From the NCBI GenBank assembly GCA_026004215.1, contig BPIR01000001.1:1543860-1607859 (forward strand): a stretch of DNA of 64,000 nucleotides. The letters run 5' to 3'. The DNA is from Candidatus Binatia bacterium. Lineage in GTDB: Bacteria > Desulfobacterota > Binatia > HRBIN30. Positions within the stretch are counted from its first letter, which is position 1. Each line of letters starts with the position of its first letter. Shown here piece by piece: positions 1,079-4,480 of the stretch. The notes under the pieces are model-generated. The model saw only the letters and a program-made list of their open reading frames with translations, was not told the DNA's origin and did no database searches. Made by a program: the position numbers and the translations under genes.

Positions 1079-3829
1079 ATGACACGGGCTACAGCCGGCT
1101 GCAGCCAGCGCTCGACAGGGCTGTGCATCGTTTTCGTGCTTCTCCTGCCGATCGAGGGTGTGATTCTGAGTTCGCTCACGGCGTCTTCGAGCGCGGAGGA
1201 GCCCCCATGTCCCGCCGTGTCCTCCTGCTTGGCCGGAGTAGAGTTCGCGACGCCTGGCGACGCCGACTGCGACGGAGATGTGTCGAGCCTCGATCTCGAG
1301 CTGCTGATCCGCACGCTTTTCTGCGACGCTTGCCCGGAGTGCCGGGGAAAAGACGCGAACGAGGATGGCACGGTGTCGGCGGCGGATCTCACGGCTTTGG
1401 TGGCTGTCCTAGCTGAGCCAGTGCCGGCACCGACGGCAACACCCACGCCGGCAGTGACGAACCCCGTCCCGTCGGCAACGCCGCGTCCCGAACCCGACAC
1501 CCCAACACCCTCACCCACCGAAGAGCCCACGCCACAAGCGACCAGCTCGCCGGCGGCAAATGACGAGACGGTTGCGACAACGGTGTACGACTCGACGCGT
1601 TTTCTTTACGAGGGTGGAAACCCACAGCAAAAGGGAGTTGCTCCCGGGACGATCGAGCCGGCGCGGGTGGCGCTGGTGCGCGGACGCGTGCTCGACCGGG
1701 CGGGACGGGGATTCCCCGGGGTAACGGTGACGGTGCTGAACTGTCCCGAGTTCGGCCGCACGACGAGCGATGGCGCGGGGAACTACGCGCTGGCGGTCAA
1801 CGGCGGAGGCCAGCTCACGATCGACTTCCGCAAGGACGGCTTCGTCACGGTGCAGCGCCAGCTGCAGCCCGCCTGGCAGGACTGGGCAGTGGTGGACGAC
1901 ATCGTGATGACGCCGCTGGACACCGAGGCCACCCCGATCGATCTCTCCGGCAATACAACGGCGTGGCAGGTGCATCGGTCGAGCATGCAGAGCGATGTGG
2001 ACGGCACCCGGCGCGCCATGCCGCTGTTTCCGCCCGCCGTCACGGGTGAACTGCTCTTTGCGGACGGCAGCACGGCAGCGCTTGCCCGGTGCGCGGTGCG
2101 CGTGACGGAGGTCATCGTGGGGCCGATGGGCGAGGCGGCGATGCCGGCGGAGCTGCCGCCGACGAGCAACTATACCTACGCCGCCTCTGTCGATTGCGAT
2201 GAGGCGCTGGCCGCGAGCACCGAGCACACCGAGTTCAGTCCCTCGCTGCCGCTTTACGTGGAGAACTTCCTCGGCTTTCCGATCGGGATCGAGGTGCCCT
2301 ACGGCGTCTACGACTCCGCACGGGGTGTGTGGGAAGGCGCGCCGAACGGAGTGGTGCTGCGGGTGACGAGCATCACGGGCCAGATGGCCGATCTCGATCT
2401 CGACAGCGGCGATGGTGGCGATGCGCAGGCGGACCCGGAGCTGTACGCAACGTACGGCATCAGCGACGGCGAGCGCGCAACCCTGGCGGGCCTGAGCGCG
2501 CCCGGGATGGAGTACTGGCACGTCCAGGTGCGCCGCTTCTCGAAGGGGGATCTGAACTGGAGCGCGCTCTTGCCGGCGGGAGCTGGGGCAGCGCCGGGCG
2601 GCGGAACGAGCGGGGGCAACCCGGGACGGCGTCTGACGGACAAGGGGCCCAGGCAGTCGGGCTTCGGCACGATCGAGCCCGAGGAGCAGGTCTTTCACGA
2701 GGACATCGGCCTCGTCGGCCTGCCGTTCACCTTGCACTACACCTCGCGGCGCCAGCCGGGCAGGACGGCGGAGTACGAGGTAAGAGTCCCCATCACCGAT
2801 GCGACACCACCGGCGCCTCTGGAGAAGGTCGTCACGGAGCTTCGGGTGGCGGGGCGAGTGATTCAGAACGAGTGGACGAACGCACCGAACCAGACCGTGA
2901 CGCTCTCCTGGGACGGCCTCGACGCTTTCGGGCGGCCGGCGGTCGGGCGGCAGAAGGCGGAGGTGCGCATTGGCTACGTGTACGTGCCGCAGTTCGTGCG
3001 CGGCCTGGCCTTTGCGGTGCCGCGCTCGGAGGTGCTGCGGCAGGGCCGCGGCGGGCAGCGGCTGACGGTGTGGACGACTCAACCGGTGGCGCTCGGTGAG
3101 GTCGGTACCGAGGCGGCGGGACTCGGTGGCTGGACGCCGTCGATCCTGCACACCTACGACCCGGTGGGTCGCACGCTGCATCTGGGCGACGGCACGGTGC
3201 GCAGCGTGGAGGGCACGGTGTTGGCCTCCGAGGAGCTGGTCAGCGGAGGGGACCTGCCGGACCGCATCTTCCAAGTGCTCGCCGATCGCGACGGCTCGGT
3301 GGTGTTTCTCGAGCTCAGCGCCGGGGAATACCGTATCCGCCGCTACCGGCCGGACACCGGCGCGTTCGAGGTGATCGCCGGAGGCGGGACGGATTTCGAT
3401 CCCGACGACGGCGGGGCGCCGGCGCTGAGCACGCAGATCCTGGTCTCCACATCGACGCGGCAAGCCATCGCGCTCGGCGCGGACGGATCGGTGTACTGGG
3501 CGGAATCGCTGCACCATCGCGTGCGGCGCGTGCGCAACGGGGTGATGGAGACGGTGGCGGGAGCCTACGGACAGGTGTGCCAGCCGGCCACCGACCGTTT
3601 CAATGCCTGCGGGGACGGCGGAGCGGCGCGGGGGCCGACGCTGCACCGGCCGGAGGGTGGAACGTTACGCCTGACGTACGACGGGATCATCCCGTTGAGC
3701 GAGACTACCATCGACTACACGTACGACGAGCGCAGCCGACTACGATCCCACGGCCGGTCGCTGGACGGCGAAAGACCCTATCGGCTTCAACGGCTACCAA
3801 CGAAATCTTTACGCCTACGCGTACAATGA
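1079..3829 (+). CDS. Secreted Rhs/teneurin-like protein with dockerin-like repeat, PT linker, CarboxypepD_reg/TTR-like domain, NHL-like region and YD repeats; a frameshift near 3740 (conserved Rhs core-end motif continues in the +1 frame to 3890)
   Basis: 916-aa ORF with an N-terminal hydrophobic signal. It has a dockerin-type Ca-binding motif (DADCDGDVSSLDLELLIRTLF...NEDGTVSAADLTALVAVL) and a PT-rich linker. The C-terminus carries YD repeats (IDYTYDERSRL). The +1 frame from about 3738 reads YDPTAGRWTAKDPIGFNGYQRNLYAYAYNDPVN, the hallmark Rhs core terminus, with a stop at 3888-3890. Confidence 0.7.
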   Translation: MTRATAGCSQRSTGLCIVFVLLLPIEGVILSSLTASSSAEEPPCPAVSSCLAGVEFATPGDADCDGDVSSLDLELLIRTLFCDACPECRGKDANEDGTVSAADLTALVAVLAEPVPAPTATPTPAVTNPVPSATPRPEPDTPTPSPTEEPTPQATSSPAANDETVATTVYDSTRFLYEGGNPQQKGVAPGTIEPARVALVRGRVLDRAGRGFPGVTVTVLNCPEFGRTTSDGAGNYALAVNGGGQLTIDFRKDGFVTVQRQLQPAWQDWAVVDDIVMTPLDTEATPIDLSGNTTAWQVHRSSMQSDVDGTRRAMPLFPPAVTGELLFADGSTAALARCAVRVTEVIVGPMGEAAMPAELPPTSNYTYAASVDCDEALAASTEHTEFSPSLPLYVENFLGFPIGIEVPYGVYDSARGVWEGAPNGVVLRVTSITGQMADLDLDSGDGGDAQADPELYATYGISDGERATLAGLSAPGMEYWHVQVRRFSKGDLNWSALLPAGAGAAPGGGTSGGNPGRRLTDKGPRQSGFGTIEPEEQVFHEDIGLVGLPFTLHYTSRRQPGRTAEYEVRVPITDATPPAPLEKVVTELRVAGRVIQNEWTNAPNQTVTLSWDGLDAFGRPAVGRQKAEVRIGYVYVPQFVRGLAFAVPRSEVLRQGRGGQRLTVWTTQPVALGEVGTEAAGLGGWTPSILHTYDPVGRTLHLGDGTVRSVEGTVLASEELVSGGDLPDRIFQVLADRDGSVVFLELSAGEYRIRRYRPDTGAFEVIAGGGTDFDPDDGGAPALSTQILVSTSTRQAIALGADGSVYWAESLHHRVRRVRNGVMETVAGAYGQVCQPATDRFNACGDGGAARGPTLHRPEGGTLRLTYDGIIPLSETTIDYTYDERSRLRSHGRSLDGERPYRLQRLPTKSLRLRVQ

Positions 3830-3886
3830 TCCCGTGAATACGTTATGTGTTATGGGAGCTCAACCACCAACCAAAGGAATTCAACA

Positions 3887-4480
3887 ATGAGGAGACGATC
3901 CATCCTTGTACTTACATTTACCTTGCTTTCGGTGCCTGCTTCGCTTGCCCAAACCATCAACGTAACCACTGCAGACGGCGGATCTGTTGTCACCGAACTC
4001 GGCTACGGTACAGGTATAAAGGTCAACAAGAATTCTTCTCTACGACGGTCATTTGTAACCTTCAATGATCCAGCCTGCCCCGTTCAACTAAACTCATCCG
4101 GTGTCACAACCCAGTATGACGGGTTGAATCGGAGCTATTACTACAGGCCGCTTGGAACGCTTACAAGTAATGAACCTGTCTCAGCAATCGATGTGCGATT
4201 TCTGCTTTACGACGTCTTCGGTGACCATATCAGAACTCTCGGTGCGACGTATGTCGGCGACATTGCAACAAACGATGCCTTTCAACTCGGGGATATCGGG
4301 AGTTGGAGAGCTTGGGAAAACGAAGTTCGTGAACTTTACACGATAGTTTCTTTCGTCGCTCGCGTCAGAACACAATCCGGCAAGATTTGGCGTTACAATG
4401 AAAAAGTCATTGGTGAGGAGTTGAACAAAGTTCGGCTCAAGGTAAGCTCTGGCGTTCTCGAACCCAGCAAAGAGAAATAA
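3887..4480 (+). CDS. Low-GC secreted hypothetical protein directly downstream of the Rhs core end (candidate immunity or accessory protein)
   Basis: ATG at 3887 overlaps the +1-frame Rhs stop (ATGA). Signal peptide MRRRSILVLTFTLLSVPASLA-QT. GC content drops sharply against the flanks. No recognisable domain. Confidence 0.5.
   Translation: MRRRSILVLTFTLLSVPASLAQTINVTTADGGSVVTELGYGTGIKVNKNSSLRRSFVTFNDPACPVQLNSSGVTTQYDGLNRSYYYRPLGTLTSNEPVSAIDVRFLLYDVFGDHIRTLGATYVGDIATNDAFQLGDIGSWRAWENEVRELYTIVSFVARVRTQSGKIWRYNEKVIGEELNKVRLKVSSGVLEPSKEK

Follow-up and report, generated by a model that had tools for sequence, protein, structure and literature searches.

A probable pseudogene of a bacterial teneurin-like protein, with a foreign low-GC cassette at its broken 3' end, in a Candidatus Binatia genome

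What has happened at the 3' end of a long open reading frame (ORF) whose last conserved residues are written in another frame? The question is raised by positions 3650-3890 of a 64,000-nucleotide stretch of Candidatus Binatia DNA (contig BPIR01000001.1), referred to here as the window. A preliminary description of this DNA had read the ORF as an Rhs core with an abnormally short cap, broken by a single-base frameshift inside its terminal motif and abutting a low-GC module, and had offered a pseudogene, a sequencing indel or a displaced C-terminal tip as the cause. The analysis gives a probability of about 80% to the following answer: the region is a scar zone at the 3' end of a dead gene for a teneurin-like protein (TLP), a multi-lesion pseudogene left by ordinary gene decay. 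The overall interpretation in the preliminary description is partly supported.

The ORF runs from 1079 to 3829 and encodes 916 amino acids (aa), as had been stated; it is KatS3mg077_1326 (GIW44044.1). Its product ends in ...TIDYTYDERSRL followed by 28 junk residues, the tail reading ...IDYTYDERSRL, then RSHGRSLDGERPYRLQRLPTKSLRLRVQ and a stop. The +1 frame (one base rightward) translates as AADYDPTAGRWTAKDPIGFNGYQRNLYAYAYNDPVN, carrying the Rhs end-motif where it had been reported, in the form (AA)DYDPTAGRWTAKDPIGFNGYQRNLYAYAYNDPVN, and continues as TLCVMGAQPPTKGIQQ to a TGA at 3888-3890. The reported fall in GC is present too, from ~0.69 to ~0.47 at 3840, and GC stays low until ~4806; this island, 3840-4806, is unique within the window. 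The frame switch is backed by codon-position GC, the third-position phase of the 916-aa frame being 0.85 up to 3740 and 0.45 in 3741-3840. The frame break near 3738 is real, and it lies at the 5' edge of the motif (3728-3738) rather than within it.

The domain content of the 916-aa ORF is that of a TLP. Pfam models identify Dockerin_1 and TTR_TEN1-4 (PF25020, E 4.9e-21); the FN-plug model PF24329 scores 26.8 bits, slightly below its cutoff of 27.8, and TEN_NHL (PF25021) is sub-threshold at 14 bits against a cutoff of 27.1, over profile positions 112-149 of 357. RHS_repeat (PF05593) and TEN_YD-shell (PF25023) have no Pfam match in the ORF, and the classical Rhs core model NF041261 (RHS_core) reaches 16 bits against a cutoff of 2000. 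Residues 162-861 align continuously with residues 365-1067 of BiTLP, the TLP of Bacillus inaquosorum (PDB 9ifo/9pt5), at E 2e-115, the best match among solved structures. The ORF has the TTR followed by TIP/FN-plug that marks a TLP. The alignment ends at BiTLP residue 1067, the NHL consensus being kept only to ...LHRPEG, and the complete six-bladed NHL beta-propeller is not there. Nor is the YD/RHS-repeat shell of ~800-1000 residues: tblastn with six full-length or long TLPs detects shell sequence only in a 27-aa stub in the gene and in a separate 140-aa fragment at 5462-5880. Judging by these matches, what the long ORF encodes is not an Rhs core with a short cap but the N-terminal part of a bacterial TLP, about half of it, comprising its TTR, FN-plug and first NHL blade.

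The in-frame GC at third codon positions (GC3) of this half is 0.78-0.87. Scans of genome contigs and metagenome contigs contained no relative of the N-terminal protein. No intact orthologue or public contig with the 916-aa product was retrieved, and exact-product look-ups of an upstream tandem copy (P0001, described below), the 916-aa ORF and an 86-aa ORF at 3577..3837 were empty. An antisense ORF of 711 aa lies opposite the TLP gene, at 1511-3646 on the minus strand.

Three breakpoints occur inside 200 nt: J1 at 3656-3661, J2 at 3728-3738 and J3 at 3839/3840. J1 joins the NHL blade to the 27-aa mid-shell stub with the frame kept. The NHL blade in homologues has the consensus GDGGPA..A.L..PEG[IV]AV..DGSLY; the ORF obeys it up to ...GDGGAARGPTLHRPEG and then runs in frame into GTLRLTYDGIIPLSETTIDYTYDERS. 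The stub is paralogous to the start of the separate shell fragment (GGGTLTYATDGPLPASETW..ISDTYDADYRL, ~5510-5630), and since that fragment aligns to BiTLP 1729-1837 (E 4.6e-4), the stub maps to about BiTLP 1740-1780.

J2 joins the stub to the core-end motif with a +1 change of frame. In the full-length TLPs P0114, P0183, P0213, P0163 and P0130 the motif is preceded by ...FGFAGG.YD.DTGLVRFGARDYDP.., the whole region reading ...NPGFQPFGFAGG.YD.DTGLVRFGARDYDPxxGRWTAKDPI.F.GGDTNLY.Y..NDP[VI]N..DP.GL. The tblastn match of full-length TLPs to the window begins at the A of ARDYDP (3732), and by the same search the ~60 conserved residues upstream of the motif are found in none of the window's frames. 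Alignment to homologues, which had been suggested as a way to see whether one base is missing, gives another picture: intact relatives carry ...NPGFQPFGFAGGLYDxDTGLVRFGARDYDP... directly upstream of the motif, and this is absent here in any frame. Because residues conserved in intact TLPs are missing in every frame, J2 is best taken as a deletion junction of ~320 codons, in place of the one-base indel that had been proposed.

At J3 the motif breaks off three codons short of the second catalytic Asp. On BiTLP, the retained pieces fall at ~365-1067, ~1740-1780 and 2104-2137. They are collinear, with gaps of ~675 and ~320 residues, which is what two internal deletions in one once-intact gene would leave. 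The ORF and the motif both match BiTLP and so belong to one kind of gene; ~1,000 residues are missing between them, amounting to about five NHL blades and the whole YD shell. The pseudogene option that had been offered is supported.

The core-end motif scores 37.8 bits against TIGR03696 (Rhs_assc_core, cutoff 32.5) over profile positions 38-70 of 76. The Rhs_assc_core domain is incomplete, its last six positions, the home of DPxGL, being missing; the observation that the motif is cut after DPVN, with neither DPxGL nor a toxin domain, holds. The motif aligns to BiTLP 2104-2137 (DYEPASGRWTAQDPILFRSGDFNLYAYVHNNPVT) at E 8e-8, compared with E 0.011 or worse for classical Rhs proteins, and is 63-67% identical to the ends of the full-length TLPs P0114 and P0213. 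Its relatives were gathered by an exhaustive HMMER search (10,219 hits); a word-index search with the frame-corrected 80-aa peptide gave no match.

BiTLP uses R2103, D2116 and D2140 for catalysis and is cleaved after L2144; a toxin domain of ~15 kDa is enclosed by the shell, and the immunity gene lies immediately downstream (PMC13018210). Here the equivalent of R2103 is Ala, D2116 is kept (KDPIG), and D2140 is gone together with the cleavage site, leaving one catalytic residue of three. The sequence stops at DPVN, short of a bipartite DPxG...DPxG aspartyl-protease motif with its Arg and a PxxxxDPxGL cleavage site. In place of a C-terminal toxin domain, DPVN is followed by 16 codons of imported leader and a stop. 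The motif fragment was also considered as foreign DNA on account of its GC of 0.56. This idea was given up: 9% of the gene's 34-codon windows have a GC3 equal to or lower than the 0.68 of the fragment, whose remaining low GC is explained by a composition rich in Tyr, Asn, Asp and Lys.

The DNA beyond J3 has another source. By blastn, window 3840-3893 corresponds to positions 48-102 of a 1.4-kb contig from a Bacteroidia metagenome-assembled genome (MAG; BQML01000088.1, locus L004) at 78% identity, and window 3949-4628 to positions 158-830 at 73%; together the two matches run from the leader through gene 1 into the 5' part of gene 2 of a cassette that stands alone in that MAG. With 73-78% DNA identity to a Bacteroidia contig, and a GC of 0.47 compared with 0.69 in the gene, the cassette can be assigned a foreign origin with confidence. 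Homology to the Bacteroidia contig already starts in the 5' leader of cassette gene 1, so the 16-residue tail of the +1 frame is read-through of imported untranslated DNA. The idea that an incoming module displaced the C-terminal tip is borne out to this extent, the match including the module's 5' untranslated region.

Cassette gene 1 encodes a 197-aa protein. Its family has 41 members, mostly metagenomic, which are free-standing secreted proteins of ~195 aa; the closest is 71% identical and is found in a Bacteroidia MAG. Pfam and NCBIfam models gave no match to the ORF. An AF2 model based on the family alignment is a confident beta-sandwich (pLDDT 87.9), and a fold search with this model returned only weak beta-sandwich matches. 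The gene sits directly downstream of the TLP remnant, where an immunity gene would be looked for. Family loci L001-L006 and L009 were compared, and no Rhs or TLP sequence is found near the family's genes in seven other loci, so there is no support for a cognate immunity gene or for homologous displacement of a tip. Among species-representative genomes the family is rare (2 loci), and in two loci, L003 and L006, a Peptidase_C92-like gene lies ~300 nt upstream of the family gene. The ATGA overlap of the TGA at 3888-3890 with the ATG at 3887 was entertained as translational coupling and dropped, the free-standing Bacteroidia homologue starting with the same CAACAATGA; the overlap is coincidental.

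Cassette gene 2 encodes a lipoprotein, and residues 1-44 of its L004 counterpart are covered here at 70% identity (tblastn). Pfam and NCBIfam have no match to it. The remaining low-GC stretch, 4628-4806 on the plus strand, holds two small gene fragments read directly from the sequence: a hydrophobic C-terminus, FFIGLIFGAFGLIAVLVMESPTEDDVDLV and a stop (4628-4717, plus strand), and a zinc-ribbon-like N-terminus, KKCPDCAEEIKFEAKVCG (from 4748, plus strand), which is cut at a 24-nt repeat. Near the low-GC island, searches for tRNAs, for Rfam families and for promoter or terminator signals above chance level were negative.

These features suggest how the locus may have come about. The ancestral gene would have encoded, in order, a signal peptide, dockerin, TTR, TIP/FN-plug, NHL propeller, YD shell, core-end aspartyl-protease motif and toxin, followed by the immunity gene. 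What is left would be its N-terminal 860 residues, 27 aa from the middle of the shell and 34 residues of the core-end motif, three pieces joined by two internal deletions, the first in frame and the second +1. The second catalytic Asp, the DPxGL site, the toxin domain and presumably the immunity gene would have been replaced through illegitimate insertion of the foreign low-GC two-gene cassette. With no shell to hold a cargo, one of three catalytic residues and no cargo, the product could not work as an Rhs or TLP toxin. We infer that J1 and J2 are real deletions in the organism, and likewise the order of events and that the gene is not expressed. The coordinates of the features are collected in Table 1.

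Table 1. Features at and around the 3' end of KatS3mg077_1326 (window coordinates)
Feature	Position	Strand	Evidence or remark
3' end of upstream tandem paralogue KatS3mg077_1323 (GIW44041.1)	1..426	+	bases 1-244 repeat 3395-3638, then unrelated tail
N-terminal half of TLP gene KatS3mg077_1326 (signal peptide, dockerin, TTR, TIP/FN-plug, ~one NHL blade)	1079..3658	+	ends ...CGDGGAARGPTLHRPEG
YD-repeat stub (one to two repeats), GTLRLTYDGIIPLSETTIDYTYDERS	3659..3737	+	in frame; J1 at left edge, J2 at right edge
Core-end motif fragment, 34 codons, DYDPTAGRWTAKDPIGFNGYQRNLYAYAYNDPVN	3738..3839	+ (+1 frame)	TIGR03696, BiTLP and TLP-end matches
Imported 5' leader, read by the +1 frame as the tail TLCVMGAQPPTKGIQQ and a stop	3840..3886	+	blastn to L004; junction in L007
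Secreted beta-sandwich protein, 197 aa, KatS3mg077_1327, cassette gene 1	3887..4480	+	100% identical to P0035
Small lipoprotein, cassette gene 2, truncated	4506..4664	+	homology stops at 4628; 104 aa in Bacteroidia homologue
IS91-family transposase C-terminal fragment (~5130-5320) with flanking 24-nt direct repeat	4807..5461	-	tblastn against plasmids
Second TLP YD-shell remnant, ~140 aa, no start codon	5462..5880	+	tblastn, BiTLP alignment

Further debris surrounds the gene. Over 853 N-terminal residues, the tandem paralogue KatS3mg077_1323 (P0001) agrees with the 916-aa ORF at 834 (98%; 19 aa differences), and its 68-aa tail is encoded at 220-423 of the window with 100% identity. The DNA of 1-244 is 99% identical to that of 3395-3638, a likeness that stops sharply 18 nt short of J1. 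The break in the paralogue thus falls 18 nt earlier than that in the ORF, within the same NHL blade, and the junk tail beyond it is a different one. Of the 19 differences, six form a cluster at residues 180-188, within the conserved NPIQTGV.PGTI motif, and the 244 nt of DNA common to both copies, a small sample, hold two non-synonymous changes and one synonymous change. These counts are consistent with relaxed constraint, and nineteen aa differences in 853 codons fit ~1% DNA divergence without purifying selection. Between the copies lies a 650-nt spacer (427-1078) in which, going by the numbering, the MAG annotation has two genes, _1324 and _1325; the ORFs of the spacer match no Pfam or NCBIfam model.

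Downstream of the cassette, the insertion sequence fragment is 57-61% identical (tblastn) to annotated plasmid-borne transposases of the IS91/ISPps1 family. Its 24-nt direct repeat (repeat family D3) lies at 4807-4830 and 5438-5461 and reads GATAGGCATTC(G/C)AATCACCTTGGA. The shell fragment that follows matches P0213 residues 1575-1720 at E 1.6e-11 and P0163 residues 1145-1245 at E 4e-11 in tblastn searches. It is native-like in composition (GC 0.71, GC3 0.91) and is not collinear with the main gene, and it probably comes from another, lost copy. Neither the IS91 fragment nor the shell fragment has a match in Pfam or NCBIfam, and the same holds for the ORFs in 325-936. Elsewhere the window consists of ordinary chromosomal genes, among them hydantoinases, DsbD, a histidine kinase, a TauE exporter and a MaoC dehydratase. 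Two genes for a hydantoinase/oxoprolinase B subunit are present, at 9932-13936 and 53565-55226, both on the minus strand, and the first adjoins an A-subunit gene.

Part of the locus can be checked independently of the assembly. All 2,108 bases of window 3790-5897 recur unchanged in the Logan contig L007, which was assembled independently from the reads of run DRR290133. It follows that J3, the cassette and the IS91 and shell fragments are features of the reads and not of one assembler. L007 begins within the core-end motif, at 3790, and stops a little beyond the shell fragment, at 5897; the read graph may branch at these ends. In that case the same sample would contain variant or paralogous TLP sequences, possibly an intact allele.

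One rival is an Rhs gene that is intact but for a single base, lost or gained in sequencing or assembly near 3738, whose correction would restore function. Indels do occur in MAG assemblies, and the MAG-derived TLP homologues P0002, P0017 and P0020 end in frameshift-like junk tails. Here, however, the site is not a homopolymer, the ~60 residues expected before the motif are missing in all frames, and the repaired frame would give a product of 936 aa (887 + 49) having ~one NHL blade and lacking the YD shell, second catalytic Asp, DPxGL cleavage site and toxin; the indel that had been offered as one of the options is very improbable. The same poverty of product counts against a programmed +1 ribosomal frameshift that links the 916-aa frame to the core-end motif. 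The rare codons CGA CTA CGA at the junction, which could suggest it, are a product of out-of-frame reading, the two-frame organisation is seen in no relative, the upstream frame ends at a deletion junction and the shifted product would lack every downstream functional element, so that such a mechanism is hardly conceivable. A broader doubt is that the junctions, the low-GC insert included, are mis-joins of metagenome assembly. In its favour are the MAG origin of the sequence, the difficulty of assembling NHL and YD repeats and a 98%-identical tandem copy, and the breaks of the Logan contig at 3790 and 5897, which hint at branching of the read graph. A chimera is nevertheless improbable: an independent assembler reproduced 3790-5897 base for base, high-GC Binatia-like DNA lies on both sides of the cassette within a 1.74-Mb contig, and a nearest foreign relative at 73% identity means that the insert is not a co-assembled copy of that MAG.

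Other rivals accept the DNA as it stands. In the C-terminal displacement model for Rhs (Jackson et al. 2009 and Koskiniemi et al. 2014, as they are cited in PMC5727410), a tip, toxin and immunity module would have recombined at the core end, and the low-GC genes would be a toxin/immunity pair or an orphan immunity gene. Displacement is expected to leave an rhs gene with a low-GC tip and low-GC ORFs downstream, followed by vestigial pieces of core and remnants of IS elements (PMC5727410); a shell fragment and an IS91 remnant do lie downstream, and TLPs normally have the immunity gene immediately downstream (PMC13018210). Yet the break falls three codons before the DPxGL site and not after it, the incoming DNA has neither core-end homology nor a toxin domain, and the join is in the cassette's own 5' leader; as the 197-aa family is one of free-standing secreted proteins, with no Rhs/TLP neighbour in seven other loci, displacement of this kind is unlikely. 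A functional module of ~850 aa, shell-less and in two tandem copies, could instead serve as a surface or adhesion protein to which the scrambled tail is irrelevant. Both copies have an identical signal peptide and an open 853-codon frame, and the N-terminal regions of TLPs are adhesion modules (PMC13018210). In TLPs, though, the FN-plug and NHL normally fold against the shell; here the two copies end in different junk tails, their differences are mostly radical with few synonymous changes in the available DNA, and long open frames are expected by chance at such GC. This leaves the module a small chance. As for the decayed gene preferred here, some observations weigh against it. L007 starts at 3790, so that J1 and J2 (3656-3738) lie outside it and assembly error is possible there; the placement of the stub in the shell depends on a short, repeat-like similarity; and the 853-codon N-terminal frame, unbroken in both copies, could still be in use. 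The last point is weighed down by the antisense ORF of 711 aa, which is equally open at about 70% GC, where an open frame means little. That the two 98%-identical shell-less modules are still alive as surface or adhesion proteins is improbable; if they were, a bacterial teneurin scaffold would have been kept for a non-toxin role after loss of the shell and toxin, a loose parallel to animals.

KatS3mg077_1323 and _1326, deposited as "hypothetical proteins", are better described as remnants of teneurin-like polymorphic-toxin genes. A shifted-frame Rhs end-motif alone is no sign of a repairable frameshift, and the domain content of the upstream frame needs to be checked first. TLPs have been reported from six phyla, and Binatia is not among them (PMC13018210); TLP-derived sequence in Binatia, outside the six, is mildly new. 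Loci of the rhs type are known to accumulate remnants (PMC5727410), and the present one is an example of the way in which deletions, IS debris and foreign cassettes build up at polymorphic-toxin loci.

Among known systems the closest are the bacterial TLPs represented by BiTLP (Raoelijaona et al. 2026, PMC13018210), with which the remnant shares the TTR, the TIP/FN-plug and the start of the NHL propeller. Its core-end fragment, DY[DE]PxxGRWTAxDPI...NLYAY..N.PV, is likewise closer to TLPs than to classical Rhs ends. Unlike working TLPs, the remnant lacks ~five NHL blades, the YD shell except for the 27-aa stub, the conserved Arg and the second catalytic Asp, and it has no cleavage site, toxin domain or recognisable immunity gene. 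Classical Rhs loci with displaced tips (PMC5727410) resemble it in their GC-rich gene, sharp drop to low GC, vestigial shell fragment, IS remnant and accumulating remnants. The difference is that here the replacement did not proceed by core-end recombination, no core homology or toxin came in, and the main gene was gutted. A further likeness is to the pseudogenised rhs3 of Snodgrassella alvi wkB2 (PMC5727410), also a polymorphic-toxin gene inactivated in place while its neighbours persist. In rhs3 the lesions are nonsense mutations, whereas in the Binatia gene they are kilobase deletions and a foreign insertion.

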